A stretch of DNA of 43,981 nucleotides from an uncultured Elusimicrobia bacterium (GTDB taxonomy: Bacteria; Elusimicrobiota; Elusimicrobia; 2-01-FULL-59-12): contig CAZDML010000004.1 in the NCBI GenBank assembly GCA_964506645.1, positions 1-43,981 on the forward strand. Reading direction: 5' to 3'. The notes beneath the pieces are model-generated. The model was not told the DNA's origin. It saw nothing but the letters and a program-made list of their open reading frames with translations, and searched no databases. Position 1 is the stretch's first letter. Each line of letters opens with the position of its first letter. This document shows, piece after piece, positions 3,646 to 40,794 of this stretch. The position numbers were made by a program, and so were the translations under genes.

Positions 3646-6600
3646 TTACGCTGCAGTTTTGAGAAGAGAGGTGTTGTTCCTAGAGGTTTTGGATCGCTGG
3701 GTTCGGAAAAAGAGCGCTATCGCGCCGATCGCGCTTCCCAGAAGGACCGACGGCAATAGCCAGGGGAATACACGGCGGGTGTTAGGGGTCGATGAGGAGG
3801 ACGAAAGAGTTTCCTTTGATCCGGGTTTCCTTTTAACCAGGCTACGCAGGTAATGACCCGTGAGAGCGACTTGTTTGTAGCCGCTGTCCCAATTTTCGCT
3901 GACGGTGGGATTGAGACCGGAGTTTTTTTGAGCAGCTTGAAGTACGGCGCTTGTGAGACGATTCACGTCCGAAGACACCTGGCCGAACATGGCCCAGCCG
4001 GAGAAGATAAATCCGTTTTCACCCGCTTTCTTGTGATCGCTGTAGGGCGCGTTGGATCCGGTGATGTAGTTGGAGACTAGCGGGTTTGTTGTGCTGCCGT
4101 TCCACATGGTTGTGGTTAAGGTGCGGGACATGCGCAGGACATCGTCCGAAGTAAATGGACCAATGCCAGCTTCCCGCATGAAGAGCATCATCTCCACCCG
4201 ATTGGTGTGATCGGTATCCCAATCTTTGTCTGTGTTGCGGTCGTCTTTAATAAATTGGCCCTTGTCCCAGATCCATCCCTTCCCGGCAGGGGTCAGTCGC
4301 GCCTTAAACGCTCGGCCAATTTTTTCGGCGAGGGTTTTGTATGGGGTCTCCCGGGTTGCCTGATATAAAAAGGTTGCGATATCGCCCAGAAGCCAAGACT
4401 TATCGTTCCACTTCACGCCTTCGCCCCAGTCTTCCGGATCATGCTCTAGCCAGTCGGGATAGCGTGACGCATCGAGATTTAAGCGTCCCTCATCAACACC
4501 CGGCAGCACGCTACTGACAAAACGCACATACGCTTTGGCTTTAGCTGCGTATTTGGACTTGAGCGCCGGGGTTGTCATGATCATCGCGGCCGCACGGGCG
4601 ATCGGCTGGAGGGTTTGCAGCGTATAAACGTCCTCCGGTTTTCCAGAGGAAGCGTCCTTCCAGGCGGGATGTCCGTTCACGGTGGAAACCTTGGCGATCA
4701 TCGCATCGATTTCGTCCAACGCTTTTTGGAACTCCGCGCTGTCCTGCGTGGCTTCCACGGCAGAAAGCATGCCCATGAGCTGGATGCTCACCAGGTAATA
4801 CTGCTCGGCATCCGCGCTTTGAATCATTTCTTTTGTCTCTTGATAGGAGTCTTTTAAGACCTGCTGGTGCAGAGCGGTTGCCTGCGTTAACGACAATTCT
4901 CCGGAGGGTGTAGATTGGGCAGAAAGGTTGCGCGACAGGAGAAGCAGGAGAAGGAAGGGAATGATCGTCCCCGGTCTCCGGATGCTTCCCCCCGCCGCTT
5001 TCTGTTGAAGAGATTTGACGGAGATATAAATAATCGGCACCGTTCGCAAGGCTGTTGTGACCATGTGAAATCGGTTGGTACTGGCTTCTCCAATAAAGGA
5101 CAGGGACGCCACTGAATCGGTCCCGTCCAGCGCTTTGACCCGCAACTGTACAGAGAAATCTTGGGGATCTCTATGCGGTTGCATAACATTTAATACAACG
5201 GTCTGTGGCCCGTTCCGACCGTACCCTGAGGCGGTAAAGACAAGCGTATCCTTGGTGGCCGAGTCGCACGACAAAATAACAGGATCCGTCGGATCGCCCA
5301 AGCGCACCTCGATCCCCTTCACAACACTCCATCCGCGTGACCAGGATTCTTTCGCTTCGGGACGCTGCAGCATTTCTGCACGGACATGTTGACGGTCTTC
5401 GGCGCGATCAAACGACAATGACCCCAGCATGGGCATGGTTCCGGACAAAAATTTCATGAGATCCATCCAAAGCGCATCCTGCAAAGAAAAATCACCCGGG
5501 GTCGCCGTACCGATCACTCCATCGGATGTTTGTCTGTTTGTGGCATTTGTTTTTGCGTGTGTCACGATAGCACTAATCAACCCTGCAACCAAAGCTACTC
5601 CCAGTAGAAGAGGGCTTCCCATCCATGCCTCAAGAGGGTTATCTGGAATACGTAGACCTTCCGATCCAAAAATCGCCAGTAGCTGCGCTCCCCCGGGAAC
5701 AGCGATAGCAGCCATAGCCCACCATCCCCACGTCGTAGCACCTTCCAGCCAGCCTCTTTCGCGAAGATTGCGCAGATCTGCTGAAGTAACCGGTACTGGC
5801 TTGGCATTGCTTCCCTTATAAACACGAGGATGCACCCCACGCGAGCCATAGATCAGGCCACTCAACAAGACGGCGACACTTCCTACAAAAAAGGTCGCGA
5901 TCCCCGCGCTCTCTTCGCGGGATGTCCCTGTATCAAAAGGATGCTGATAGAAATACCCGTGCGTGAGGACCATGGGGAGTGCGATAAGCACGCCCTGAAA
6001 AAAGAGGCCCTGAACCATGGGGGCCAAGACGGTTTGGATAGTCGAGAGCGGTACGCCGCGTTTCATCAGCGGCTGATAGATCAGCCGGTCAAACCAGAAG
6101 CCAATCAGACCGCCTGTGGCGGTTCCTTGAGTTGTCGTGGAGGAATAGCGATCGCTTCGCAAGAGAGCCCGGGCTTCGGCATCGGCAATGACTGTGACGT
6201 CGGAATGCAAGCGAAGCACGGACGACGGTAGTTCAGTTGAAATAGGACCTTCCAGTGCTTTCTGCAGGGCGACGGCTTTTTTGGGGCCGCTCACGAGCTG
6301 CAAAATTTTCCGCGCATCCAGGATGGTTCCCAAACCAACGGTCAGTGCCCATTCTGGAACCAGGCTTGGATCGTTCCCGAAGAATTCCTGATTTTGAACA
6401 CGCGTTCGTGCTGCAATTTTCACAAGATCTGTTCGAGACTCAAAATGGGACCCGGGTTCACGAAACGCTAGATGTCCATTCTCGCCCATCCCTAATACGG
6501 CCAAATCAATGCCACCCAGACTTTTAATTAAGACTTCGTAAGCGGTTGCTTCGGCTGCTGCTGATTCAGCTTGGTCATTAAGCGTGTGGACATGCTCTGC

Positions 6601-8646
6601 GTTAAAACCAAGTTCTGGCTTTCGACTCTGCACATCCAGAAGCGGATCGGTTAGAACGCGTTTAGCATGGGCCGCAAAGCTTTGGTCCGCATAGGCGGCT
6701 GGAATCTGATAGTAGTTGTCCAAGAAAAAGAAATGCACATTGGAAAGGTCGAGAGGATGTTCTTCTAAAAGGCGAACGAGCTCTTGATACATTCCGCGCG
6801 ACGTGCGGTCGGCCGGCAGGAGCAGGTTGGCACGGCCCTTTTCCTGAAGATTTTTCTGGAGAGTGTCATACACGAATCGGGCAGCGGGCTCAGCGACGGC
6901 ATCACGGTCGGGCACACCGACCAAGTTGACGGGATAATCGTTTTCGTCTGCCGGCGCAACAATTGAGGAATTCGTTTGCGAAGGCGGAACCCAATGGTAT
7001 TTTGTGGTGTCGTATGTGTATCCTCGTTTGCCCGCTGCGGCTTCAATACGTTTCCAGGCCTCTGCATTGAGACCGTAAATCTTCAAGAGCGCACGCCGAT
7101 TCAGTTTAAAAATATCGTTCCAGGAAATTTTTCCAGCGCGTGCGAGCGAATTGATCAGACGTGTAATCGCGTGCTGCGTGTCTCCCCCATCGGTCTCACC
7201 TGGATAGAGAAAGTCGCTTCGCTGTATAAAGTCACCTGCGGCGAGCGCAGCCGCGCTGACCCATCGGTTGATATGCGGGACATAGCCGTGCTGCGCTGCG
7301 GCGTGGATAATATAAAGCTTGAAACGTGTGTTCAGGATCTCGTACGGTGCGCTCTCGAATAAATCTTTCCAAGACGTCCATCCTTTCTGTGTAAAGGTAC
7401 CCATGAGATCGTTGAGTGTCCGTTGCACAGCGCCTCGATCTTCCGTTCCCGCAGGTAAAAAATCCTTACGATTCACGCGATCATGCCTGCGCCTCTCGGT
7501 GGCGTGCTCCTCTATTTGTTTACGTAAAACGGCCAGTAGGACATTTGGAGGACTGGGTTTTGCAACCAGAGGGATATCGGGATAACGATCCAGGATAGGT
7601 TGGCTTAATTGCGTTTGCCCACTGCAGATGACCACCGGAAAATGAGGATTTGATGCTCGCAGGCTATCGATCAAATCTCCGCCGTGGCTGGAGATGAGAT
7701 GCGTATCGACAACGGCCGCAGCAAAACGACCGATGCCCAGTTTGAGTGCGTTCTCGACACTGTCTGCTTTTTCAACGACGTAGCCGTTTCTCTCTAAGAC
7801 CACTTCCCACAGGCGTGTAATATGTGCGTCGTCATCTACCACGAGAATTTTAGGACGAGAGGATAATTCTTTCTGAAGGGCGGTTCGAAAACGTCTCTCA
7901 TACGCAAATAATTTAGTCAGAGTATCGATGCGTGATTCTTGCAACATTTTCCGTAGTTGATCTGTGGGGATCTTTGGGATAAGCAACCGATGAGAAGCGA
8001 GGAGTTTGCTTGCTTGTCCGAAGCGTTCAATCATTTCAGCCGTCGCGATGCGGTGAATCAATGACGACGCATCAGGTTCTTGGAAGTGACCGCTATTTTC
8101 GTGAGTGATTTCTCGGCGTTCCTGAAATTCGGCCTGGGCTTGAGAAGCTTCGGTATTAAAAATAGCCGTATTGATCACGACGATCGGCATTCCATCGCTT
8201 TCACGGCGGTAATGGAAGGCAGGAATGTCGTGCTTAAGTTGATCGGTGTAGAGGACGATGGCCGTGGTCCCGTCTTTCTCGGTGGGGGACATGCGATTGG
8301 ACAGGGTCGTTAAATGCTCAGCGTTTTCTTTGAGTTCTTGCTTTGCCCACGCGTGAAATTGCGCGCCGTTGTCGAGGCCCGGAATTTTAAAGGTTCCGAT
8401 CCCTTCGTTGGGGAGAAGGCCAGAAAAGGTAGGCCGGATGTGCGGACTGGCTTCGGAAAGAATGTGCTGCATGCCCAGAACGCGAAGGATAAAGGCTTGA
8501 TCAGTAAAGAGAGATCCAGAGAGCCTCGTGGGCCCCGGCTTACAATCCGCCGGGGCGACAGCAGATAGCGCCGCTGTTGCCGGATCGGCAACCAAGGAGA
8601 CGGCGAGGACTAGCGCGACCCCGCGAGAGAAGTGACGGTTTTTCAT
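3646..8646 (-). CDS. Giant mosaic membrane protein (1666 aa): conserved leader, receiver domain, two alpha-CTD-like repeats, NagB-like domain, TM bundle, internal signal peptide, putative extracellular alpha/alpha domain, C-terminal TM and ..KTAA tail
   Basis: Receiver KILVVDDD..VVDTH..CSG..AKP (~7515-7860); 83-aa tandem repeats (~7017-7470); glucosamine-6-P deaminase fold with LDNY, GMGENGHLAFREPGS, ALTVGLGTIL (~6160-6935); several TMs (~5560-6120). Confidence 0.85.
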   Translation of the reverse strand: MKNRHFSRGVALVLAVSLVADPATAALSAVAPADCKPGPTRLSGSLFTDQAFILRVLGMQHILSEASPHIRPTFSGLLPNEGIGTFKIPGLDNGAQFHAWAKQELKENAEHLTTLSNRMSPTEKDGTTAIVLYTDQLKHDIPAFHYRRESDGMPIVVINTAIFNTEASQAQAEFQERREITHENSGHFQEPDASSLIHRIATAEMIERFGQASKLLASHRLLIPKIPTDQLRKMLQESRIDTLTKLFAYERRFRTALQKELSSRPKILVVDDDAHITRLWEVVLERNGYVVEKADSVENALKLGIGRFAAAVVDTHLISSHGGDLIDSLRASNPHFPVVICSGQTQLSQPILDRYPDIPLVAKPSPPNVLLAVLRKQIEEHATERRRHDRVNRKDFLPAGTEDRGAVQRTLNDLMGTFTQKGWTSWKDLFESAPYEILNTRFKLYIIHAAAQHGYVPHINRWVSAAALAAGDFIQRSDFLYPGETDGGDTQHAITRLINSLARAGKISWNDIFKLNRRALLKIYGLNAEAWKRIEAAAGKRGYTYDTTKYHWVPPSQTNSSIVAPADENDYPVNLVGVPDRDAVAEPAARFVYDTLQKNLQEKGRANLLLPADRTSRGMYQELVRLLEEHPLDLSNVHFFFLDNYYQIPAAYADQSFAAHAKRVLTDPLLDVQSRKPELGFNAEHVHTLNDQAESAAAEATAYEVLIKSLGGIDLAVLGMGENGHLAFREPGSHFESRTDLVKIAARTRVQNQEFFGNDPSLVPEWALTVGLGTILDARKILQLVSGPKKAVALQKALEGPISTELPSSVLRLHSDVTVIADAEARALLRSDRYSSTTTQGTATGGLIGFWFDRLIYQPLMKRGVPLSTIQTVLAPMVQGLFFQGVLIALPMVLTHGYFYQHPFDTGTSREESAGIATFFVGSVAVLLSGLIYGSRGVHPRVYKGSNAKPVPVTSADLRNLRERGWLEGATTWGWWAMAAIAVPGGAQLLAIFGSEGLRIPDNPLEAWMGSPLLLGVALVAGLISAIVTHAKTNATNRQTSDGVIGTATPGDFSLQDALWMDLMKFLSGTMPMLGSLSFDRAEDRQHVRAEMLQRPEAKESWSRGWSVVKGIEVRLGDPTDPVILSCDSATKDTLVFTASGYGRNGPQTVVLNVMQPHRDPQDFSVQLRVKALDGTDSVASLSFIGEASTNRFHMVTTALRTVPIIYISVKSLQQKAAGGSIRRPGTIIPFLLLLLLSRNLSAQSTPSGELSLTQATALHQQVLKDSYQETKEMIQSADAEQYYLVSIQLMGMLSAVEATQDSAEFQKALDEIDAMIAKVSTVNGHPAWKDASSGKPEDVYTLQTLQPIARAAAMIMTTPALKSKYAAKAKAYVRFVSSVLPGVDEGRLNLDASRYPDWLEHDPEDWGEGVKWNDKSWLLGDIATFLYQATRETPYKTLAEKIGRAFKARLTPAGKGWIWDKGQFIKDDRNTDKDWDTDHTNRVEMMLFMREAGIGPFTSDDVLRMSRTLTTTMWNGSTTNPLVSNYITGSNAPYSDHKKAGENGFIFSGWAMFGQVSSDVNRLTSAVLQAAQKNSGLNPTVSENWDSGYKQVALTGHYLRSLVKRKPGSKETLSSSSSTPNTRRVFPWLLPSVLLGSAIGAIALFFRTQRSKTSRNNTSLLKTAA

Positions 8647-8662
8647 AGGAAATGGATGAAAA

Positions 8663-8668
8663 AGTATA
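8663..8668 (-). promoter_or_regulatory. Putative -10 box TATACT 16 nt upstream of the 1666-aa ORF ATG
   Basis: Same hexamer, same TTT run and same 16-nt spacing as upstream of the 649-aa ORF; no SD. Confidence 0.45.
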
Positions 8669-8745
8669 ACGGGTTATCGACGGAGGATGAATAGAGCGTT
8701 CGGCTAAATGATGGGGTCTGTAAGACCCAAAGAAGACTGGGTCCT

Positions 8746-10155
8746 TTACGGATGGGAGAAGGAGATAACGGTTTCGATGTGGGAGGTGTGTGGGAATAGA
8801 TCGACAGGCTGGACGTCTTCCACGCGGTAGCCGCCGCGGGTTAAGAGCGCCGTGTCACGGGCCAGAGTTCCGGGATCGCAGGAGACGTAAATCAGCTGAT
8901 GCGGACGCAGCTGTAAGATCCCTTGAACGACTTCTTTGGAGCAGCCTGCGCGCGGCGGATTAACGACGGTGAGCTTGCCGGAAGCGGGCCGATCGATCCC
9001 GGAGCGCATGAAGCGTTCAGTGGGTTCGCCGATAAAGCGGGCATTGCGGATGTTGTTGAGGCGAGCATTCTTCTCGGCGTCGCGGGCGGCGCTTTCCACT
9101 TCTTCCACGCCCAGCACAGCCTTAAACTGGGGCGCCAGATAAAGCGCGATGCTGCCGACGCCGCAGTAGAGATCCAGAAGGAGATCCCCGCGCGCCGCCT
9201 TTTTCACCACGTCATACAGCACCTTCGCCTGTACGGTGTTGACCTGAAAAAAGGATCCCGGCGATAACAGAAACCGTAAAGTTCCGAGACGTTCTTCGAT
9301 CGTCTCTGCGCCGGCGATGGAGCGCCAGCGCCTGCCGAGAATGACATTGGTATGGGCCGGATTGATGTTCTGATGAATACCGGCCAGGGCCGGAAATTCG
9401 GTGACCAGCGTCTGGACGATTTCGCGTTCGTGGGGGAAATCGGGGGTGTACGTGACAAAGGCGAGCAGCGCCTGTGTCGCATTTTGTGTGGTTCGTACCA
9501 ACAGATGCCGCAGCCATCCGGTGCGACGGTCTTCGTCATAGGCTCGCACGCCATACCGTTCCAGGAGCGCCCGCGCCCGGTTTACAATGGCGACCGAAAG
9601 CTCGGGCTGCACCAGACAATCCTCGATCGGCATAATGTCGTGCGATCCCGGCGCATAAAAACCTGTGACCAGTCGCTTCCCATCCCAGCCCACCGGCTGT
9701 TGCACCTTGTTGCGGTACCTCCAAGGATCCTTCATTCCGATCGTCGGGTTCACGCGAACGCCTTTTACGCCGCCAATGCGCTCAAGGGTTTCACGGACAA
9801 GCTCGGTTTTAGCGCGGAGCTGAGCATCGTAGGTTAGGTGCTGCCACGTACATCCGCCGCAGAAGAGGGATTGCTGTTTATTTAGTTGGAAGTGGTAGGG
9901 ACAGGCCGGTGTAATACGTTCTGGCGACTGCTCGATGACACGGACGGGATACGCACGGGCAAAACGATCGCGGGTTTCGGTAATTTCTACTTCGAGTGTA
10001 TCCCCCGGAGCGGCGTAGGGAACAAAGAGGACGCCCTCATCCGTACGGGCGACGCCATCACCACCCAGCGAGAGCCGCTCAATGGTGACGGTGCGCCGCG
10101 AACCGATCTTAAGGAGTTTGTTGCGAGAATCCACAGGATTACCCGTAAATTCCAA
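8746..10155 (-). CDS. rlmD: 23S rRNA (uracil-C5)-methyltransferase, RlmD/RumA family
   Basis: TRAM N-domain, CPYH..CGGCTWQH Fe-S motif, SFFQVN, DLYCGVG, NPPRAG, catalytic YVSCDP and DLFPHTSHIE. The called TTG start lies in a repeat element, so the real start is probably slightly downstream (e.g. GTG 10134). Confidence 0.92.
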   Translation of the reverse strand: MEFTGNPVDSRNKLLKIGSRRTVTIERLSLGGDGVARTDEGVLFVPYAAPGDTLEVEITETRDRFARAYPVRVIEQSPERITPACPYHFQLNKQQSLFCGGCTWQHLTYDAQLRAKTELVRETLERIGGVKGVRVNPTIGMKDPWRYRNKVQQPVGWDGKRLVTGFYAPGSHDIMPIEDCLVQPELSVAIVNRARALLERYGVRAYDEDRRTGWLRHLLVRTTQNATQALLAFVTYTPDFPHEREIVQTLVTEFPALAGIHQNINPAHTNVILGRRWRSIAGAETIEERLGTLRFLLSPGSFFQVNTVQAKVLYDVVKKAARGDLLLDLYCGVGSIALYLAPQFKAVLGVEEVESAARDAEKNARLNNIRNARFIGEPTERFMRSGIDRPASGKLTVVNPPRAGCSKEVVQGILQLRPHQLIYVSCDPGTLARDTALLTRGGYRVEDVQPVDLFPHTSHIETVISFSHP

Positions 10156-10271
10156 TCATCAAATTCCAAGCTCCAAATAAGCTCCAATAATTAAACATCT
10201 AAACAGGTTTTGTTTTTGTATTTGATGATTATTTGTTTATTTGGTTATTGGATTTTGGTGATTGGAGTTTG
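10148..10271. repeat. Heptamer-built imperfect inverted-repeat element, copy 1
   Basis: Left arm ttccaat-catcaaa-ttccaag-ctccaaa-(taag)-ctccaat..; right arm ..(ttta)-tttggtt-attggat-tttggtg-attggag. Same architecture at 28752 and 32967. Confidence 0.85.
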
Positions 10272-10691
10272 TGAACCATTGTCCTGGCTCAGACGATGCA
10301 GAGTGTCCTGCACATCCGGCAACAGGGCGCTCTTGGGATATTTTTCCTGAAAGGCATTTAATGCGGCGATCGCTTCCGCGCGTTTCCCTTGGCGGGCCTG
10401 TTCCACCGCTTCGCGGTAGACCTTTACTTCGGCGACGTCCACGGCCTGCGATCCTTTCTTTTCCTTCCAATAGAGAGCCGATTTTTCCTGCTTCGCGCCG
10501 CGAAGACCCGCAACACTGGCGGAGCCGGCCGTCGGTTTATTGGCTCGTTGTGCGGTGTGGTCGAGCTTCACCTGAAGTTTTTGCAAGTAATCATTTAAAT
10601 TTTCTACGGGCTGCGCGGTTTCTGCCATCGCGCTTGCGCCGAGTATTGCGGTAAGCCCCAACACCACCAGCCAGTTTGTTCTACGATTCAT
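10245..10691 (-). CDS. Exported hypothetical protein with coiled coil and one TPR-like hairpin (CpoB/YbgF-like C-terminus)
   Basis: AGGAGG RBS before ATG 10691 (MNRRTNWLVVLGLTAILGASAMA = Sec signal); YREAVEQARQGKRAEAIAALNAFQEKYPKSALLPD resembles an outer-membrane-type TPR. Confidence 0.75.
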   Translation of the reverse strand: MNRRTNWLVVLGLTAILGASAMAETAQPVENLNDYLQKLQVKLDHTAQRANKPTAGSASVAGLRGAKQEKSALYWKEKKGSQAVDVAEVKVYREAVEQARQGKRAEAIAALNAFQEKYPKSALLPDVQDTLHRLSQDNGSQTPITKIQ

Positions 10692-11934: not shown

Positions 11935-13884
11935 TTATGCGGCCGTGTCGATGCGTCGTTTGGATTTTCGGGCAGGAAGCGGCGCAGGGTCGGCGTCTTC
12001 CCCTGAGGAATGGAAAATGGTGAGGGTATGCGTCTGGGGATCATATAGCGGCTGCTTCAACAGGTAGTCCGGACTGGCCCAGAACAGCAACTCATCCACT
12101 TCATCGCGCGATAGATACTGTCCGTCACGCACAATGCGAATAATCGCTTCTTCCTGGTTCTGCGAGACCAGAAGTTTCCAGGCGGCCAGTGCGGCCATAG
12201 AAGGAATATCGTGATAGGTGCTCTGCGCGAAACCGCGCAAGCCGCCGGGGACCGCGATTTTTACTGTATGTAAATGTTGCTCGATGCTTTCCCGGGCGGA
12301 TACCAGGAGTCGCAAGAGCACGGGCTGGTCGGTTTTGTGAAGTTCGCTTAAAAGACGCAGACGATGGGTCAGGGTCAGCAGCTTCTTGTACTCAATGAAT
12401 AGAATCCCTGGGATTTTTTCCAGGGCCATGTGAGACATATCCAGTATATGCGTGATCAAATGAGTGTCACGGCCCAGCAGGGTCCTAAAAGCAGCGCCAT
12501 GGTTTTTCCAGATCCATTGCTGTTGAACCAGCAGTTGACCTTCCGGAGGCACGGCGACCAGAACCGTCTTTTTTGTGCTGTGCTTGGAGGGATCCCAGAA
12601 GAGCAGGGGTTTTTTCCTGGGAGCCGCGGCTGATTTTAAAAGAATATCCTCCCACACCCGCTCAAGCATATCGTGCTGCTCCTTGAGCTTAGAGCGCGGG
12701 TGATGCGCGAGCAGGTGCAGTCCTTTGGGTCGGCCGAGATAAATGTCTGAAAACGATAGGCCCGCGTGCGACTGTCTTTCATGTTTGCGATTTTCGTGAT
12801 CCGCATCCGAAGAGGCCGTCCCCTGGGCAGAACGGACGAGGGTCCACAAGGGTTGCTTTTCAGGGAAGAGATCCGGAAATTGGCCGCGCAGAATTTGTAA
12901 ACAGGCCATCAGGTCAAACCCTTCTACGTCCAGCGCATTTTGAATGCGGTCCAGGAGCGCGCGGTGTTGGTGCACAAGCTGGCCTACCGCAATATCCTCG
13001 TCATCCGAATCGGTAGGCGGATGAATGATCAGGGCTGATTGAAGTGCACGGGTAAAGTCGCGCAATTTTTCGATATCTGCAGGCCCGGCTTCTCCATGGG
13101 TGAGCCGAAGGCTGATCGCCTGCATTTCTGGAGCCACTGATTCGATGAGCATCGGATAAATGTTCACGTCGATTTCGTCCACGCCAGAAAGAAATTCGTT
13201 GCGCAAGTGATACCCTTGCAATGCCAGAAGCCGGAGCGCGGCTTCCGGGTAGTGCGCCAGTCGGACCGCCCTTTCTGAAAATCGGACGTGGTAGGCGGCC
13301 GCGGCATGAACCATCCAGTCCCACACGGTGGGCAGCGTATTCGGCCAGGCATCCTCAGTTTTGACCCAGCCGTCCAGGAGATGTTGGGCTGTCTTAAGCA
13401 AGGGCGCGGCCTGAGCTTGCGGAATATCCCCTTCCAGAATTCGCTCCATGACTCGAATCAAATTTTCGTCGCGAGGGTTTTTTAAATCCACATCGAGCAA
13501 ACCGGCGCTAAGGAAAAAACGGTCCCAGGCGGACTCTCCGCTGCCGCTTTTGTGAATTCGAACACCGGGCGGAAGGCTCATGCCTATCGCGATGGGAATT
13601 CCGGAGGGATGGTCCTCGGCATGGCTCCATGTCCAGTTTTTATGAAGAGTCAACGGGGAGTTCTGCCGGATTTTCCAATCGATTGGGGAATGTCCAGTAA
13701 AGGCAACGACCAGTAGAACTGTAAGCGCTTCGGATTCCGTCCGGGGGGTGTAAGACGCATCCCCTGGAGCCGCGTTTGAACGAGGTATTTCTACTAACGG
13801 GAGCGCAGCGGCGACCGCAGGCTCAAAGCCCAGGCAGAAAGCAAGCACCACCGCGGCGCAGCGAAGGAAGAGTTTGTTCGTCAT
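11935..13884 (-). CDS. Hypothetical protein (649 aa from MTNKLF) of the conserved-leader/AA-tail family
   Basis: Leader MTNKLFLRCAAVVLAFCLGFEPAVAAA aligns in register with the two giant ORFs; ends KRRIDTAA. No recognisable domain. Confidence 0.8.
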   Translation of the reverse strand: MTNKLFLRCAAVVLAFCLGFEPAVAAALPLVEIPRSNAAPGDASYTPRTESEALTVLLVVAFTGHSPIDWKIRQNSPLTLHKNWTWSHAEDHPSGIPIAIGMSLPPGVRIHKSGSGESAWDRFFLSAGLLDVDLKNPRDENLIRVMERILEGDIPQAQAAPLLKTAQHLLDGWVKTEDAWPNTLPTVWDWMVHAAAAYHVRFSERAVRLAHYPEAALRLLALQGYHLRNEFLSGVDEIDVNIYPMLIESVAPEMQAISLRLTHGEAGPADIEKLRDFTRALQSALIIHPPTDSDDEDIAVGQLVHQHRALLDRIQNALDVEGFDLMACLQILRGQFPDLFPEKQPLWTLVRSAQGTASSDADHENRKHERQSHAGLSFSDIYLGRPKGLHLLAHHPRSKLKEQHDMLERVWEDILLKSAAAPRKKPLLFWDPSKHSTKKTVLVAVPPEGQLLVQQQWIWKNHGAAFRTLLGRDTHLITHILDMSHMALEKIPGILFIEYKKLLTLTHRLRLLSELHKTDQPVLLRLLVSARESIEQHLHTVKIAVPGGLRGFAQSTYHDIPSMAALAAWKLLVSQNQEEAIIRIVRDGQYLSRDEVDELLFWASPDYLLKQPLYDPQTHTLTIFHSSGEDADPAPLPARKSKRRIDTAA

Positions 13885-13900
13885 TAAAATACCTGCGAAA

Positions 13901-13928
13901 AGTATAGGGGGTTTTGAGCAGCAGACAA
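13901..13928 (-). promoter_or_regulatory. Putative promoter TTGTCT-N16-TATACT, 16 nt upstream of ATG 13884
   Basis: Hexamers read on the minus strand. Confidence 0.5.
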
Positions 13929-14049
13929 ATAGAGCCAAAGTCTATAAATAGGGAGAAAAAGACCCTAAAAAGCCTGGGCCCTTAGGCCTGTATTTTTGCC
14001 CTTCCGATCCATAGATCCACCGACGAGAAGTCGATAGACTTTAGAACGC

Positions 14050-17000
14050 ATGAAATCCCACCTTTTCACACGAATTATTGCGGCCGTTTTGTGCCTTGCG
14101 ATGGGGCAAGAACCTGCAGCACAAGCAGCGCAATGGGCAACGGCCAATGAGCAACGGGCTACACATTGCGCATCGCGCATGGCCCATCGCGACGTTTCTC
14201 CTTTTTCCTCCCAAGCCTTGGTGGGCTGCCTCATCGCAGGCTTTGTCGGCTTTCATGCGCTTCACCAGGGGCATGCCGAGGCTATGCAACTTCGTATCAA
14301 TGCTGGGACCTTGCTGGGGATTTTAACGGGTTCAGCCGTCCTGGGCATTATGAAGTCCGGTGACAGTACCCCTCCTCCTATCGCTCTACAGATTCAGTAC
14401 CTTTCCACGGCGCCTCCCCCGATCTATCAAGACGCGATTCGACATTTTTTTGATGAAGAGGATTACCTTAGTCTTCGCGAAAGCGTACGACTCTCGGGTG
14501 GCCCGGACAATTTGGATGGCTATCGAGTAGCGCTCTTTATAAAAACGGTGCAAAGTGCAGAAATAGCCATTGTTTCTGAAGTCCGCTATGAAGCTATTCA
14601 CACCGTTACAGGAAAAACACATAAAGGGAAATTCGCCCTGCACTCGTCCTGGTTGGACAACCCGGAAGATCTACAGCAGGAGCTGTTAACTCTTGAACGA
14701 CTCCGCAATGACTCGCCCGACTTGTTCGAGAGCATTCCCGCACTCTATACCGTTGCTAGGATTTTGATCGATAGAAATCAACCGATCATTTTCGGAACGA
14801 CGGACTGGGTTCCGGTCGAAGATATTAATTTCCGTCTGAACCCATCGGGAACGCATCTAGAGCCCTACATCACTTATTTGGATCAGCCCTCCGATTCCTT
14901 ATCCCCCGAAGACGCTGATTGGGTGACAAGAGAAATCGCCCGCCTCTTAATTTCCACGGCATTAACTGGAACTACTCTGGTCCCGTCACTCAATACCGGC
15001 ATGTTTGCGCTAGAGCGGCGATCGGGGGATAGGCCTAAAGTCTGGCTTGTCGGAGGAACTCCGCTCAGAGAAGAAGCGATTGAGTCTGCTGTCGGGGCAC
15101 TCGCAGAGCAATTTTTAATGCTTCTGGGTCTTCGACTCTATGATGCCGAAGAGCATCGAGCGAAGAACATGGATACAGGGTTACCCACGCACCCGATTTT
15201 TACCCCCGAACAGTTGCTGGCCGGTTTCCATGCGATGCTCATAGATAAAGTAGGTGCAGTTTCCGGCATGAAATTATTCATCGCCTTTGTCGCTCAGCTG
15301 GGATACAGCATTGAGCGCCTCAACACATTAGAAGAATATACCGGCTTCACCCCCGAAGCACTGACGGAGCGTTTAACAGCCTATTTACACACTCTTCATC
15401 CCAGGGCCATCGTTGCAAAGTCTCCCTGGGGCCAACTCTACGGAGAACTGAATGAAGGCAAAGAGCATCTTCAGACTCTTCTGAAAAAAGAGGGTCTTCA
15501 GATCCTGCTTCGGGCTTACCCGCAGATCCAAGAACTAATCGATACCGCGCGTTTTGCTGACCTGAAAGTTCTCATCGAAGACATCATTGCGCCGGAGCAG
15601 GAAACAACGATTTTGTTCGAAGCGCCGTTCATCCAGTCCCTGAAATATCTTCGACAAATCCAATTTCTAAGAAAAGAGGATGCGGTTCCATTTGTTCGAG
15701 ATGTTTTCAAAGCCATCGTGGGCCAGTTTGTAAACGAACATCAGATTGGTTTTGTGGCAGGCCAATCCGAAGCGATTGCTTTGGCTGTGGAACAGCTTCA
15801 AGCGCTTTATGAGGAAGTTTGGGGGTGGACCGATGATTTGCAAACCTTCATGGTGGAACTTGTGGCTGCGCGCGAGTGGAGTGTCGAAGAAGCCAGCCAC
15901 AAACTAAAACGTCTTCTGGTTGCACTCACCGAGCGGCACCGTACTTACAACCAAAGCATCCGTCTGCGAAAACCCGGCTTTGAGAACAAGCCCTATGCCA
16001 TGACAGGGGGAAGTTCTGAGCGAGCCGTGGTGCGGTGGCCCTACGTGGGTATTGAGGGACAACAGCCCTTGTCCCATACGGGTGTTTGGCCACAAGCTCA
16101 GGCGCTTTTGGACTTTCTGAGCACGCCAACCACGAAATTGCCGAAGTATGCCGACATCATTGTGATTTTTGGCAATGACCTGCTGGCCTCCTCCCGAAAA
16201 GGCGCGGAACTCTATAAGCAATACACAGCGGCGGCCAAAAAACTAGGACGTCCTTTCCCGAAAATATTCGTGACGGGCGGCAGCGGCCGGGACACGCCGG
16301 CGCATTGGGTGAAAGGGGAAGCTCACGCGCATCAGCAAATTCTCCGTGAGCACGCTATTTCACCAGGGCGCATTTTCCGGGAATCAAGAGCAACGAATAC
16401 AGAAGACAATGCCATTGCCGCAGCCAATTTCTTCCTTCAGCGCGGATATACCGAGGAGGATCCTGTCGATACGGTGGTTGTCATTCAAAGCCCTGCCTCG
16501 ACCCTGCGTGCACAGTTGACGCTCGAAAAGTGGGCTGGAACATTGGCCCGGCGGGTCGTGGGTGTTGCCCCTTTTGATCCCGATATCGAGCGGTCCGACC
16601 CGGCCACACGGCTGCGGCTCCTGGAGACCGCCGTCGGTGAAATTGGCCGTCTTCTGGATTATCCGGGCAAAGGCTATTTCCGTGCTGTCGAGATTCCGGA
16701 TGAGATTCTTCAATTAACGTTAGATGTCCAACGCTCACTGCTCACCGATCCTTCTCTGCGGCCAGAAACGCGTACGGCACTGATTCGTTGGGGAGATGTG
16801 ATGAGTGTAGAACTCGTGCGCAGGGCTTTGCCGGCGGGCCGCAGCCCTCAGCACTTTCCGCCTCCGGCTCCATTCGAACCTACGACGCGAATCCTAACAG
16901 CTTCTGGCAATTCCAATATGAGTTATTTGAACCGTCATACGTCGCAATGGTCTTGGATGCGTAGGGAATTGTGGCCCACCATGATTCAAGCCAAAGTCGC

Positions 17001-20000
17001 GGCTGGACGAAAACAGATCGAGGTTATTATTCTTGGGGCCTCCACCGGGGAAGAACTGGCTCGTGCGTATCATGAAATCATTTTGGCTTTGCAGGACCAA
17101 CATGAAGACCCGCGGCAATGGATTCTTCGAATCCAAGGATGGGAAATCGATGCAGGGACGGCAGCCGCTGCCGCGCGGCGCTTAGCGGGCGAAGAACCCT
17201 TTGTGTATGACTTGCCCGAGCGTGCCGACAAAGCGCCTCTTCACCTGGATTATGCTCAGCAATGCGTGAAGACGCTCAATAGTTTTCTGGGTGTGCCTGG
17301 CCATTCTTTAGAAGTGCATCAGGCAGATTTCCAGACAGCACATTTGGATGAGCTCTATCCAGAGACGGACCTCGTTATCGAAAATCAAGTCTTCTATCAG
17401 TTGGGTCTGACGAATGAGTCCATAGCGTTTTATGAACGCTTAGCCCGATGGGCTCGACCCTGGATGGTTGGGGGCGAGTTCTATTATTTGCATCAGTACG
17501 GAGGACGCCCTGTGCGCGAAGTTATGCATGAGACCCCTCTATCGGCGGGAGAACGTACGCATTTAGTCAGCTCCCCTTTAGTTATATCTCCATCAACCGT
17601 CTCTCCCATCCCAAGCATCAAAGTGGTGGCCATCGATTGGAACAGCACGCTTTATTCAGAAAGTAAGCAAACCCTACGGAAGGGAGCACGGGAATTCTTA
17701 GAAGGTCTCGGTGATCGTGGCATCACGGCTTACGTGTGGAGCAATAACCCGGACGTCTGGAATCATGTGATCCGATTCGACCTGACGGGTTTGCTCCAGA
17801 AGCCTGCTTGGATTATTAAGGATAAACGGGCCCAGTTAACGCAGTTGATAGAGCATCTTCGGGTTCCTCCCGATCAGATTGTGGCGATGGGTGATGAGGC
17901 GGCGGATATTCTCGTGGCCAAACGCTTGGGAACAAAAGCCATTCTCATTCGAAGTCGCAGCAGCGTGGATACGTCGCTTCTCGTAGGAAAAATGGTGCCG
18001 GATGCCGTCATCCCCAATCTGTATCATCCCGACAATATCGCAGATCTCATCGCCGGTGGCGTAAACCCCGACCCGGCGGGCCGTCGCTGGACCTCCTTTT
18101 TTGTGCCGCTGCAAGGAAAAATCATTATGGCCATTCCTCAAGACGGCCTTACGGGGGATGAACTGGAACGCTATGTTCGCCGTGTCGCGCCATTTCGGGA
18201 AACAAGACAATTTGTCTGGCCTTTAATGCCCGTGATGATTGTGCCCACGCTCGCCATGGCCGGGCTGCTCAGCGTCCTGCCCTATTCCGACCCTCATTCT
18301 CTGACGGCTAAAACGCTCATTTTTCTTGCTGCGGCCTCGTTCGGCGCTACGGGCGCGGTTGTGAGTGCTTGGCTCTTTCGTCTCGCCCACAGCAAGGTCT
18401 ATCACGTATCCGGACAAGAGCAACATGCGTATATTGGCGCACCTGTTCCACCGACCGCAGACGAAAAACCTCTTCTTTTTAAACGCGGACTGGTGTATGC
18501 CTTGGCGCTGGTGCTTCCTCTCTTGGGTGCTGTGGCGAGCGTCCTTTTGGGTGCGAATGCAGGAGTCGCCGCTGGACTTGCGGTCACATCCCTGGGTGCT
18601 CCCTGGGCCATACACAGCTATCGCAACAATAAGCCGTTCGGGCAGATCTTTGCGGGTCATCCTGTCTGGAAGGAATTGTTGATGGCGCACCCGTCGGAAG
18701 ACTTCCCATCGCTTTATCAAGAATTCTTGAACTTTTTGCGCTTCCTGGGACAGGAAAATCATCGTACTGATAAACCCACAACTCTCTTGCGAGACGCCCA
18801 CCATGTATTAAATCGTTGGAACATCAAACGGGTGGCAAATATTGCCATTCCTGAAGTGGTGCGACCCGATTTTGAAATGCTGAATGCGGGTGTACGACAG
18901 TCGCTTGCTGGCGTGGGCTGGGCTTCTCGAGAAGATATTCTGCAACGCCTTCGCTCCCTGGCTCATGCAGCGCCTCGAAATGAGACAGTCCTTTCCTTGG
19001 GGAGCAGTGATGGTGAGGGACTTCCTTTGCTGGAACTGGTCTTGTCTTATCGTGAAGTCACTCTTGTGGATTTGGACGATGTGAGCTTGCAGCGCGGTAT
19101 GGAGCGGCTACGTCGTGATCTTGTGCAAGATAAGCTTGGGTTAAACGCAGAACAGATAACAGCCATTCTCGCTCGTGTTCATGTGATTCGTGAAGATATT
19201 TCGGGAATTGTCGAAGAATTTACGGGTCACATAGATCATATTCTTCGCGAAGAAACGTCAGATGCCCGCCTTGTGGATGCTTTGGTTACATACCTTCGCT
19301 CCTATGGATCACGCTCTTCTTGGCCCGCACCTGCGTTCGGCGCCCACGATCTTGTTATTTGTCCACTCGTTATGACGCAGCTGCAGTCGGCCTTACCTCA
19401 CGTGATGCAAAAGCAGATCGATGCACGTATTTCTCATTTATCTCGAGAGCAACTCTTGGCCCTGATGGGTGCCGTGAATGAATTTACAGATGCGGTCATG
19501 AAGGCCCACCTGGCACACCTCGAGCAATGGGTAAAACCCACCGGGCATCTCTACTGGTCGGATACGACGGACGAGGTGGAATTTGATATTCGCGGACAAC
19601 AGCAAGCTCTCCCGATGATATCAATGGAGGCGTTCAAAGCTGCGGCCTCCAAGCATTTTGATGTTCGTCCCCTGGATCTCTGGACGTGGATTCAGACGAT
19701 TCCGACCGTCTCCATTTTGGGTCAGCTCTTCTTTGTTGAAGCGTTGGCAATGCGGCCGCATCGTGTGATCTCGGCAGGCATGCGAGTGAGAGACCGCCGA
19801 GGCCAGGAACGTGAGATTGATGAGGTTCGCGAGGATGGCAAGGTTCATCTCACAGGGGATGCCCCTCATATCTACATAAGTATGGGACTTCTGGAGATTG
19901 TTCCTGTTATCTCGCAAGAGGCCAAGAGTGAGGACACAGAGGAAGATGTAAAGCAGGGCACCCCCAGGAATTCCTATTTCTTGCTGCTTGTGCTTTTCTT

Positions 20001-23000
20001 GTTTACTGGCGGTTTGGCCCGTAGTGCGAAAGCGCAGGATGTTTCTATGCCGCATTCGTTCGTGACAGAGATGGTCTGGAGTGATTTTCCGTGGATTTCA
20101 GCATTGCTCGCGGTTGTCATCCCTGCGGCGGCCTGGGTGATATGGAAATACGTTCCTCGGTTTTGGGTGCCAGCCCCTTGGGTCGCTCAGATGGATTCTG
20201 CGGAGACCCGCTGGGAAGGTTGGCAGCAGATCCCTGCAATAGAACCAGAGACCGATGAAGTCGACGCACTCTATCACTTTTATTATTGGAGTCGTCACCC
20301 CGACTGGCAATCCTTGGCACCTCAAGATTGGAAGCAGTTAAAAGGGTTTGTCGAAAGCGCTCAAAAGCGTCAGGCTGCAGAGGGTTTCCCGGTTCTGGTT
20401 CTCCCGCCGGATCTGCTGGCGACGCTGCTCGCACAGCCGGAGGGCCTGGCCGAGCTCCTGCGCCGCGTTCATCCTTACACCCTCCAGTCGCTCGAGCATG
20501 CCGACTCGCCGGTGTCGCGCTTCACCATGCATGAGGGCGTGTACTACCAGCTTTTTGCAGAAAAATTACTTGGACGTCTGCCGGAAGGGGGCGTGAATCT
20601 TATAAATATTGATCCGCATTCGGACGCGATTTACCAGGCCCACGAGTATATGTCGAATCGCTTTTTGCGGGGCACAAATCAGGAGAAGGCCACGCAGCGG
20701 CTGCACTATAAGGGCGTCACAGATTTTAATTGGATCGCCGCCGCGGTCGGGGATGGGCTGGTGCGCGAAGCCGTGACCATCCCGCCGAAGCAAACGATCT
20801 GGACCGTGGGTCATATTCGCCGCCACGCCGAAGGGTGGCCGATGGTTATGGAGACCGATATCAGCGATCTCGGTAAAGCAGCTGAGTTTACTGAGGAGGC
20901 CCCGCTCTGGGTCACCGTGGATATGGATATGTTCAGCTTGCGCTCTGAATTTGTCCCTCAGCAGACGATTTATCATCATGGCGAACGGACGGCACGCGCG
21001 ATCATCGAGCTAATGGTTGCAGATCTTGGGTTGCATCGAAAGAAGATCGATCGCTTGTCGACGGCGGTCTCTCCAACCTACATCTCACTAAAGGCTACCC
21101 CTAAACAGATCGACATGTACCAGAGGGTTACCGAGGAAGTGCTTTCACCGCTGCTTCGGCCCAAGGCGACGGCAGCCCCAACTCCGATGGGGTCGTCCCC
21201 CGTACTCAAGGTACTCTTGGAAGCGTTGGGACTTAGCGATGCGGTCATTGCCAACTCGGAAAATGTGCAAGAGACGGGAGCGCCCTATACCCTCAAGCGG
21301 TTGCAGCTTCCCGTGCGATCGAGTCAGCATGGCGTCCCCCAGGGCCTGGATATTCTTCGACATGAGTTGACACTGCATTACCTAGGCCCCCTGAGTATGG
21401 ACTTGGTGTATTCTAAAGAGGGCACGTTGGTGGCCATTTCGCCGACCCCCAGCACATCCCTTCCTAAAAAACTGTTTTACATCGATGCGACGCCGTACCA
21501 GTTCACTTTTCCGCAATCCTCGGAGGCACGCGCAGAGTGGGAGAAATTTGTAGCGCAATACAAACGGGACCAGGATGTCGTGCGTGTGTATCTGTCCTAC
21601 TTCAAACGATCCAGCGGATTAGAGCCACGACGGCTCAATAGCCTGGCCCCACTCGCGCACGCCCATTACGATGCTGCCGATAAAAAATGGGAGGTCGCCG
21701 GCATAAACATCCATTTATTCGATATTACGCGCTGGCTTTCGGCCGCTGCGAAACTCGGACGCCGTATCGTTTTGCCTGTCTTTCCTACGGTGTATCATCC
21801 GCAGTCCACCCAACTATCAGAATCCGACCGCAACTACTACAAGGCGTTGCACGAAGAGGTGTCTTATAAAAAGGACCAGCGTATTCTGGTTGTCGGTCCC
21901 GGATCCGGACTGGAAGTCTGGGCGTTAGCCCAGAAAACAGAGCTTCCAATTTCTGTCATTGGCATCAATCCGTTGGAAGTCGCCAACGTGAAAGCGCTCG
22001 CTGCGCTCGGGGGCTTTTCCGTTAATATTCTCGTTGGCGATAACGTCATCGATGAAAACGGCCATCCTCGATTCCCGGGAATAGAATTCGATGTCATCGT
22101 CTGGAACATGCCGGCGCTGGAACATCCGCTAACCTACGACTTAACGCATAAGCAGTTGCATCAGTATCACGATGGCGATTTGGGCGGCGAAACCCTCTCC
22201 CGTTTTGGCATTGGACTTCTAAAAGTTCTCGCTCCACAAGGTTACTCTCTTATATGGAACCGCTTGCCGCGCGGTACAGAAAATCCTGCACAGGTGATCC
22301 GAGACTACCTGCATCTGAAGGTAGAGGATTCACAGACGACTTCATTTGAAGTGGAGGAATTAGATCGCGGTGTCTATCGGATTTCCCGCGCGCCTTCGGT
22401 CGCACAGCGCGTGGGAATGGGCATGCCGCACCATCTCTACAACCTTTACCATCCGGAGGCTGTACTGACGCGTTCGGGGGATTCCTCCATGAAACCAAAA
22501 CATTCGCGGCGGCCCTGGGGTGTGATTGTTCTGGGCTTAGCTTCGGGTTTTGCAGGCGGGATGTCCCTTCTACTGGCGCAGAACGGCACGCTGCATGAGA
22601 TGTATCCTGAGGTTCTTCTTTTTACGCTCATCAGTGGTGTCGTGACAAGCCTTGTGTGGGCCTCCCTGCAGGAAATGCATGCTACGAAAAGTGAGTCGTA
22701 TTCTTCACGTCTGAGTATCTACTTAGCGCTGTCGGTTTTGTGTGTTGGCAGTTGTATGCCTCTATCCCTGGGTATTTTTACCGGTGTCTTTATTCATTTG
22801 TTTATTTCGCTCAGTCTTCGCTCCTCCGATGATGCGGTAAAGACGCCGGAAGCGGTTTTGTCGCGACTCTGGCCCGCCTTTTTTGCGTCTTTAGAATCTC
22901 AGCAGCCGGAGGAGCGTGAGCGCGCGGAAGCTGCCTTGATCGATGGGTTGTTCGTTTTTGCCATGCATCCACGTCTCTATCTACGGCGCATTATGACGCT

Positions 23001-28248: not shown

Positions 28249-28274
28249 TAGAAGTCTTTAAAAAAGCGACTTTC

Positions 28275-28346
28275 GTCCTCATCGACTAGCGGTTAGGTCA
28301 GGTCCCTCTCAAGGACCAAGCACGGGTTCGATTCCCGTTGGGGACG
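28275..28346 (+). tRNA. tRNA-Glu (anticodon CTC); CCA not encoded
   Basis: Acceptor GTCCTCA/TGGGGAC, D-arm GAC..GTC, anticodon arm GGTCC-CTCTCAA-GGACC, T-arm ACGGG-TTCGATT-CCCGT. Confidence 0.95.
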
Positions 28347-28356
28347 GAAGTCGCTT

Positions 28357-30840: not shown

Positions 30841-30847
30841 ATGGGCA

Positions 30848-30900
30848 AGTCTAACAGGTGGACTTTGCTGTTGCAATACCGAATCTGGCTGGGGTATAAT
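30848..30900. promoter_or_regulatory. Divergent sigma70 promoters sharing one palindromic -35 (TTGCAA, 30871-30876)
   Basis: + strand TTGCAA-N18-TATAAT (30895-30900); - strand TTGCAA-N17-TAGACT (30853-30848), with TG extension, 7 nt before the Sel1 ATG. Confidence 0.6.
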
Positions 30901-30937
30901 TTGTCCACAGTTGTTCGTTCTTTTCGACAATAAGTTG

Positions 30938-31110
30938 CTCTTATCCAGAGTGGGGGTCCCGCAAACCTGTGTTTCAGGGGAGGCGGGACCAGCGTTCAGT
31001 GACACATCGAACGCTGGAGGGACGGGCCCGAGGATCCCACGGCAACCTTTAAAAAGGTGCCAACGCCTGGACACTTTAACCGCTGTGGTGGTTACTGATG
31101 CCGATAAGAG
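30938..31110 (+). ncRNA. SAM-I (S-box) riboswitch aptamer with ~60-nt insertion in P2
   Basis: P1 CTCTTATC/GATAAGAG; ATCCAGAG; GGAGGGACGGGCCCGAGGAT; CGGCAACC..GGTGCCAAC core; upstream of a thrC-like operon. Confidence 0.88.
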
Positions 31111-40646: not shown

Positions 40647-40794
40647 GCGAGTCTCCAATAAGTCGTTATTCGCTTTCTTGTGACTTTAAGAGTGTACCGG
40701 AAGAGCCAAAGTAGGTAAATAGAACCCAAGGCCAAAAATGGAGGTCTTTTGGGCCCAGGGGTTTCCTGGGTCCCGGCGTCACGGCGATGTCGCA

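Follow-up and report, generated by a model that had tools for sequence, protein, structure and literature searches.

The stretch of DNA analyzed here (43,981 nucleotides, positions 1 to 43,981 of contig CAZDML010000004.1 in GenBank assembly GCA_964506645.1; hereafter, the window) comes from an uncultured Elusimicrobia bacterium. On its minus strand, at positions 3646 to 8646, the list of open reading frames (ORFs) gives a single uninterrupted frame of 1666 codons that contains all of the protein parts described below. Family scans and hydropathy place in its product, in order, a signal-peptide-like N terminus, about 230 residues, a phospho-receiver domain (REC), two tandem repeats (R1 and R2), a NagB-type glucosamine-6-phosphate deaminase domain, a cluster of hydrophobic segments, about 600 further residues, and a C-terminal anchor. 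The repeats had been picked out, at positions 7017 to 7470 (amino acids, aa, 393 to 544), in an original prediction made from the sequence alone, which likened them to alpha-CTD, the C-terminal domain that the alpha subunit of RNA polymerase (RNAP) carries, and proposed that they could act as a mimic of it; the NagB domain that follows them and the 1666-aa membrane-associated singleton ORF around them are features that go beyond that prediction. To our knowledge, alpha-CTD is known almost solely as the tail of RNAP that binds activators and UP elements. We find that R2 is very probably a divergent homologue of this domain, one in which most of the residues that contact DNA and activators in Escherichia coli have been replaced.

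The two repeats are a real tandem duplication, and an old one. R1 (aa 393 to 475, positions 7222 to 7470, minus strand) and R2 (aa 476 to 557, positions 6976 to 7221, minus strand) recur with a period of exactly 83 residues, R1 opening with RKDFL and R2 with RSDFL. They match each other by BLASTP with an E value of 1e-8 at 34% identity, and their Smith-Waterman score of 78 compares with a mean of 24.4 (standard deviation, 4.6) and a maximum of 50 among 5000 shuffled sequences, none of which scored as high. The 83-aa repeats with a common RxDFL start that had been read from the translation are thus borne out. No tandem repeat was found at the DNA level, and the duplication is therefore old.

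Sequence searches, a profile hidden Markov model (HMM), a structure model, and Foldseek together assign R2 to the alpha-CTD type of double helix-hairpin-helix, or (HhH)2, domain, with a 12-residue insertion toward its N terminus and a beta-hairpin at its C terminus. An exhaustive phmmer search of 1.84e9 representative proteins with the repeat as the query returned only the ORF itself and two other proteins, P0002 (E = 1.1e-9) and P0003 (E = 1.5e-5), each of which carries seven repeats of the RNA_pol_A_CTD family PF03118 (E = 2.5e-76 and 6.5e-49, respectively). An HMM built from these 14 repeats matches the ORF at residues 495 to 542 only (20.4 bits), and when it was run against all six frames of the window, the R2 site alone matched. 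This segment (TRLINSLARAGKISWNDIFKLNRRALLKIYGLNAEAWKRIEAAAGKRG; positions 7021 to 7164, minus strand), delimited by HMM alignment and residue mapping, is the alpha-CTD-homologous core of R2. Against R2 alone the same HMM scores 27.4 bits, the highest of 5000 shuffled R2 sequences reaching 7.3 bits, and HMMs made from P0002 alone (25.8 bits) or P0003 alone (17.0 bits) each match R2 as well. Genuine alpha-CTDs score higher with the 14-repeat HMM, at 47 bits for that of E. coli and 56 bits for that of Thermus thermophilus. In the Protein Data Bank (PDB), the joint profile finds about 50 RNAP alpha chains, with E values as low as 1e-17, and after them Hel308 and DMC1/RadA, and hhalign aligns R1 plus R2 with the PF03118-type repeats at an E value of 4e-4. 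Residues of the structural core retained in R2 are L501, D511, I512, L521, K522, L526, I534, R541, and G542.

R2 was modelled with AlphaFold (AF2) from an alignment in which R2 and R1 were combined with twelve PF03118 repeats; an alternative two-repeat alignment (A3) was dropped for this purpose, the second half of R1 being misaligned in it. The resulting model has a predicted local distance difference test score (pLDDT) of 89 and a predicted template modelling score of 0.76, and it consists of four helices followed by a C-terminal beta-hairpin. Its Foldseek matches in the PDB are led by the alpha-CTDs of RNAP, 7vpd_S, 1doq (1.5 Å over 50 columns), 1z3e_B (0.9 Å over 46), and 1lb2_E (1.0 Å over 49), with probabilities of up to 1.0 and with 18 to 32% identity between R2 and the solved alpha-CTDs. 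The matches of high probability are nearly all alpha-CTDs, and the N-terminal domains of RadA/Rad51 and winged-helix proteins rank lower in the list. The original prediction was to fall if the best structural match proved to be a generic HhH or SAM-like fold; both the only sequence relatives of R2 and its best Foldseek matches are of the alpha-CTD type, and on this count the prediction therefore stands.

The alternative in which R2 belongs to helix-hairpin-helix or SAM-like domains at large, with no particular kinship to alpha-CTD, can be weighed on the same results. The silence of Pfam, a direct PDB match that is not significant (E = 0.68), the weak Foldseek E values, the presence of Rad51/RadA domains in the Foldseek list, and the fact that P0002 also matches the HHH_5 model would all suit it. 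However, PF03118 fits P0002 far better than does HHH_5 (E = 2.5e-76 versus 5.7e-30), so that the sole significant relatives of R2 favor the alpha-CTD family. Moreover, T. thermophilus alpha-CTD (1doq) heads the nonsignificant PDB results both for R2 and for the R1-plus-R2 profile (E = 0.72 for the latter), neither search listing any other HhH protein. We therefore regard a merely generic resemblance as very improbable and R2 as very probably a true but divergent member of the PF03118/alpha-CTD branch of (HhH)2 domains. The PF03118 model itself misses the region, which marks R2 as an outlier of the family, and in this respect the Pfam check that had been suggested for the repeats came out negative.

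R1 is a different matter. It aligns with R2 over the first three helices and the last one (IIHAAAQHGY in R1, IEAAAGKRGY in R2), it has a 5-residue deletion precisely at the second hairpin, and its C-terminal extension differs from that of R2, apparently ending in an extra helix according to a single-sequence model of low confidence. When tested alone, R1 gave no alpha-CTD signal, either with the repeat HMM (-3.2 bits) or with hhalign (E = 0.4). The Arg/Asn pair of helix 1 depends in R1 on how the alignment is made, falling on D413/G416 in a gapless alignment and on R409/N412 after a 4-residue shift. R1 is most aptly regarded as a degenerate copy, recognizable only through R2, and the proposed likeness of the repeats to alpha-CTD consequently holds for R2 and does not extend to R1 on its own.

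To judge what R2 might still bind, we mapped it onto E. coli alpha-CTD by an HMM-anchored alignment, in which the numbering of the E. coli sequence agrees at R265, N268, G296, K298, and S299. In E. coli, the 265 determinant, comprising residues 265, 268, 294, 296, 298, 299, and 302, binds UP-element DNA (PMC10853779; see also PMC9178005), and the 287 and 261 determinants contact activators and sigma factor, respectively (PMC10853779). R2 keeps two of the seven residues of the 265 determinant (R265 as R496 and N268 as N499), the others being changed (N294 to G525, G296 to N527, K298 to E529, S299 to A530, and E302 to R533), and R1 lacks the second hairpin altogether. Of the eight residues of the 287 determinant R2 keeps one (L289, as L520), and the 261 region is parted from helix 1 by the 12-residue insertion. 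These determinants were defined in E. coli and may not hold for Elusimicrobiota. P0002 and P0003 keep the NLGxKS hairpin, and its loss is therefore specific to the 1666-aa protein. The mapping speaks against both activities that had been envisaged for an alpha-CTD mimic, namely, binding of UP-element DNA and titration of activators.

These residues bear on the possibility that the repeats form a DNA-binding output domain, with REC and the tandem alpha-CTD-like domains making up an unconventional response regulator, perhaps tethered to the membrane, that grips the minor groove or the DNA backbone in the manner of alpha-CTD. Such a role would be in keeping with the retention of R496 and N499, the counterparts of the key residues R265 and N268; with the charge of the R2 core, which is net +7 compared with -1 in E. 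coli alpha-CTD; and with the position of the repeats directly after REC, where an output domain would lie. The presence of two copies also parallels the two alpha-CTDs of RNAP. It is hard to reconcile with the replacement of five of the seven 265-determinant residues, including the glycine of hairpin 2, with the state of R1, and with a protein that begins with a signal-like segment and in which an enzyme domain and then several membrane segments follow the repeats; nor did the literature searched describe a REC-HhH type of output. We consider a DNA-binding output unlikely.

The same mapping also bears on the suggestion that the repeats are an alpha-CTD decoy, titrating activators or other alpha-CTD-binding proteins or occupying UP elements, whether in its own cell or, after export, in a host or prey cell. 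The fold and the family are indeed alpha-CTD-like, the N terminus is signal-like, a neighboring 3226-aa ORF shares this style of construction, and phage proteins whose names include an alpha-CTD domain can be superposed on the R2 model at about 1 Å. Against this stand the few determinant residues kept, the split 261 region, the low identity of R2 to solved alpha-CTDs, and its family HMM score of 27 bits, compared with 47 to 56 for the genuine domains. No secretion-system or effector context was identified, nor any other finding relevant to delivery into another cell. A decoy function is accordingly very doubtful. We give equally little credence to the more elaborate form of the idea, in which REC followed by two alpha-CTD-like domains, as part of a giant protein that is exported or anchored in the membrane, would be a novel signalling output, a phosphorylation-gated decoy of the pair of alpha-CTDs in RNAP that sequesters alpha-CTD-binding regulators or occupies AT-rich promoter DNA in a neighboring, host, or prey cell.

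The repeats lie directly between an intact receiver and an apparently intact NagB domain. The receiver is full length (aa 263 to 388, positions 7483 to 7860, minus strand) and is recognized by PF00072 (E = 3e-9), by solved receivers in the PDB (E = 1.6e-7 to 1.5e-6), and by NCBIfam response-regulator models. Its residues DDD270-272, D314, S342, and K363 align with the acidic pocket, the phospho-acceptor, the S/T residue, and the lysine of solved receivers, confirming the earlier reading of an intact receiver immediately upstream of the repeats. REC is internal to the protein, 260 residues preceding it, and no histidine kinase gene was recognized among the neighboring ORFs examined. On the other side of the repeats, the NagB-type domain (aa 578 to 832, positions 6151 to 6915, minus strand) matches PF01182 with an E value of 5.8e-22 and 79.1 bits, against a cutoff of 27, and TIGR00502 with an E value of 8.9e-54 and 182.5 bits, which is under the cutoff of 236.9 for that model. 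It aligns with Bacillus subtilis NagB (2bkv) at 138 bits, including the catalytic GxGxNGHxAFxEPG-type motif, here GMGENGHLAFREPG, and thus appears to be intact. Its closest relatives, with 35 to 43% identity, are the usual stand-alone NagB proteins, each about 250 aa long, and the homologue search with this domain revealed no fusion to REC or HhH domains among them.

The remainder of the protein is less readily classified. Its first 27 residues (MKNRHFSRGVALVLAVSLVADPATAAL; positions 8566 to 8646, minus strand) resemble a Sec-type signal peptide, with a hydropathy peak at aa 9 to 27 and n-, h-, and c-regions that can be read from the sequence. A cluster of transmembrane-like hydrophobic segments lies at about aa 872 to 1031 (positions 5554 to 6033, minus strand; Kyte-Doolittle peaks at aa 872 to 895, 914 to 932, and 1013 to 1031), and hydropathy points to a transmembrane-like C-terminal anchor at aa 1629 to 1647 (positions 3706 to 3762, minus strand), followed by a basic tail. 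Between these, an internal segment at about aa 1222 to 1245 (positions 4912 to 4983, minus strand; GGSIRRPGTIIPFLLLLLLSRNLSAQS) resembles a complete signal peptide, and a domain of about 370 residues and the C-terminal anchor come after it. This segment suggests that a once-separate secreted protein was joined in frame to the 1666-aa ORF, and thus that formerly separate genes were fused. Scans of these N- and C-terminal parts, and of the repeats, with Pfam, PHROGs, and PADLOC gave no significant match, and PDB sequence searches with aa 28 to 262 and aa 1240 to 1625 gave none at all. The recognizable domains that follow the Sec-type N terminus, REC and NagB, are normally cytoplasmic types, and that N terminus is a difficulty for every intracellular reading of the protein.

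The ORF is also a singleton, with no orthologue in the collections searched. It is identical to protein P0001, which forms a cluster of one member. A word-indexed homologue search of an index of 5.8 billion clusters found no relative of the repeat region, nor did a GTDB genome scan of 185,579 species-representative genomes. The only match in a JGI metagenome scan with the repeats was to a C5 DNA methyltransferase gene in a termite-gut metagenome (L081, at positions 512 to 1867 of its plus strand); we judged it to be a chance occurrence of the 8-mer HDRVNRKD, shared with the linker before R1, and not a true relative. Elsewhere in the window, neither the repeats nor other parts of the ORF have a paralogous copy.

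In another alternative, the repeats would be relics, a decaying or neutral spacer that serves at most as a linker, in an ORF that was recently pieced together from captured modules or that arose through an assembly or frameshift artifact. The lack of an orthologue in the collections searched, the plain degeneracy of R1, the internal signal-peptide-like segment with the gene fusion that it suggests, and the divergence of the NagB domain, at only about 40% identity to stand-alone NagB proteins, could all be accommodated in this way. A stop-free ORF of 5 kb at 54% G+C is, however, unexpected by chance, and R2 retains a complete hydrophobic core and a confident model between domains whose catalytic motifs are intact. 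On balance, the spacer explanation seems unlikely, to much the same degree as a DNA-binding output.

We favor instead a reading in which an alpha-CTD-type (HhH)2 domain was duplicated long ago and captured in a mosaic protein, between a receiver and a NagB-type deaminase domain. R2 keeps its hydrophobic core together with hairpin 1 and the Arg/Asn pair in helix 1; it has lost the Gly-Lys-Ser contacts that belong to hairpin 2, and it is strongly basic. R1 is a decayed copy without the second hairpin. Rather than being a faithful copy of the UP-element-binding tail of RNAP, the R1-R2 pair would serve as the immediate output or adaptor module of the receiver, a small unit that binds a protein partner or, nonspecifically, nucleic acid or another polyanion. 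Phosphorylation of the receiver might alter the exposure or dimerization of the pair, which might in this way couple the receiver to the deaminase and the membrane part downstream. Taken whole, homology and receiver-linked adaptor or binding role together, we put the probability of this reading at roughly 0.45. The analysis shows that the repeat is real, that R2 is homologous to the alpha-CTD family, how the domains are ordered, that REC and NagB have intact motifs, and that determinants have been lost; from these results we infer the adaptor or binding role and the control of R1-R2 by phosphorylation.

Several observations weigh against this reading. With no orthologue of the ORF in the collections searched, there is no sign of purifying selection on the repeats. 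Neither R1, nor R2, nor the two together were reported by PF03118 in hmmscan at E values of up to 10. The Foldseek E values of the R2 model are all at least 0.13, as is usual for a domain of 50 residues, and the confidence of that model derives from the alignment of PF03118 repeats and so is not independent of it. A model of R1 plus R2 made without an alignment was poor (pLDDT, 46.5); at this low confidence it places helices at the same positions in both repeats, 83 residues apart. Lastly, if the signal-like N terminus were cleaved, REC, the repeats, and the NagB domain would be extracytoplasmic, where neither phosphotransfer nor glucosamine-6-phosphate is expected. The topology of the protein, and with it the proposed phospho-control, is therefore uncertain.

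The genes that neighbor the 1666-aa ORF are ordinary housekeeping genes, encoding RlmD, MetRS, TatD, the delta' subunit of DNA polymerase III, thymidylate kinase, and threonine synthase. The MetRS shares 68 to 72% identity with its counterparts in metagenome-assembled genomes of uncultured Elusimicrobiota, which places the window in that phylum. Elsewhere in the window, positions 14050 to 23730 (plus strand) encode the second giant ORF, of 3226 aa, which, besides a signal-like N terminus, has hydrophobic segments and a signal-like stretch (YFLLLVLFLFTGGLARSAKAQD) in its interior. It carries enzyme domains of cytoplasmic type (DUF218 and a HAD hydrolase) and shows no BLASTP similarity to the 1666-aa ORF. 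A 690-aa protein at positions 40795 to 42867 (minus strand) is a right-handed beta-helix, pectate-lyase-like protein with a C-terminal sorting domain of the FlgD_ig/CHU_C type, as in type IX-like secretion. The 732-aa protein at positions 28876 to 31074 (minus strand) consists almost entirely of repeats of about 36 residues, GxGVPKDxxQAxxWYxKAAEQG, whose look in the translation is Sel1/TPR-like. Two ORFs of about 660 aa, at positions 11935 to 13938 and 38685 to 40658 (both minus strand), belong to no Pfam family; the former has only a weak IS630-transposase-like match (E = 0.006), and the latter has a signal-like N terminus and C-terminal hydrophobic segments. The sole RNA gene found in the window is that for tRNA-Glu(CTC), at positions 28274 to 28347 (plus strand).

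The PF03118 domain type was known already, as were copies of it outside RpoA in tandem-repeat proteins, small PF03118 proteins, and phage proteins; what is new is the architecture REC-(alpha-CTD-like)x2-NagB, an order present in no other protein found in our repeat, profile, and NagB searches. If functional, an alpha-CTD-derived module attached to a receiver and an amino-sugar enzyme would represent a new type of output or adaptor in two-component signalling and would show that the alpha-CTD fold has been reused outside transcription. The value of the finding is limited by its resting on a singleton gene in an uncultured Elusimicrobiota lineage, in which the DNA- and activator-binding determinants are mostly lost. 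A literature search on alpha-CTD-like domains outside RpoA, on PF03118, and on REC-plus-HhH outputs found nothing relevant.

Among known systems, response regulators with noncanonical outputs share with the 1666-aa protein an intact receiver followed by a small helical domain in the output position. We know of no described response-regulator class with an alpha-CTD or HhH output or with a NagB domain, and the literature search found none. The AR1-AR2 repeats of NusA are likewise two consecutive (HhH)2 modules, of about 70 to 80 residues, that take part in protein-protein regulation; they are acidic, whereas R2 is strongly basic, and NusA is absent from the top 50 Foldseek matches of the R2 model.

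Closer in fold are the phage proteins annotated as RNA polymerase alpha subunit C-terminal domain-containing (BFVD entries A0A6J5M7I6, A0A6J5N2B9, and A0A5Q2WLP1, the last from Mycobacterium phage Mithril), which, like R2, lie outside RpoA and superpose on the R2 model at 1.0 to 1.2 Å over 46 to 49 columns. Unlike the 1666-aa protein, they are small and single domain, and the likeness is structural only (E values of at least 0.24); a PHROGs scan of the repeats gave no significant sequence match to phage families. A profile search with alignment A1 yielded only six small PF03118 proteins (P0005 to P0010), none of them a REC fusion. On an ENA metagenome contig (L082, positions 7676 to 10381, plus strand), three adjacent genes made up of PF03118 alpha-CTD-like repeats (155, 592, and 126 aa) sit next to alternative-complex-III genes and thyA-folA; the three may represent a single long repeat gene that was divided in gene calling.

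P0002 (570 aa) and P0003 (592 aa), which come from metagenomes and are the sole significant sequence relatives of R2, resemble the R1-R2 pair in carrying tandem alpha-CTD-like units, with a period of about 65 to 75 aa, outside RpoA. They differ from it in having seven or more near-canonical units with the NLGxKS hairpin and no REC, NagB, or membrane parts, whereas the 1666-aa ORF has only two units, one of them degenerate, amid unrelated domains, with R2 an outlier. Compared with alpha-CTD itself (PF03118; 1doq, 1lb2, 1z3e, and 3k4g), the repeats stand outside RpoA, lack its N-terminal domain, and occur as two tandem copies between REC and NagB in a membrane protein. R2 further departs from it in the change of five residues out of seven in the 265 determinant and of seven out of eight in the 287 determinant, in the 12-residue insertion before helix 1, in the added C-terminal beta-hairpin, in being basic rather than slightly acidic, and in falling below Pfam detection. 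What R2 and alpha-CTD probably have in common is the four-helix (HhH)2 core of about 50 residues, over which the model of R2 superposes on the solved domains at 0.9 to 1.5 Å; the conserved core positions are L270/L501, D280/D511, L290/L521, K291/K522, L295/L526, I303/I534, R310/R541, and G311/G542 (E. coli residue first), together with R265/R496 and N268/N499.

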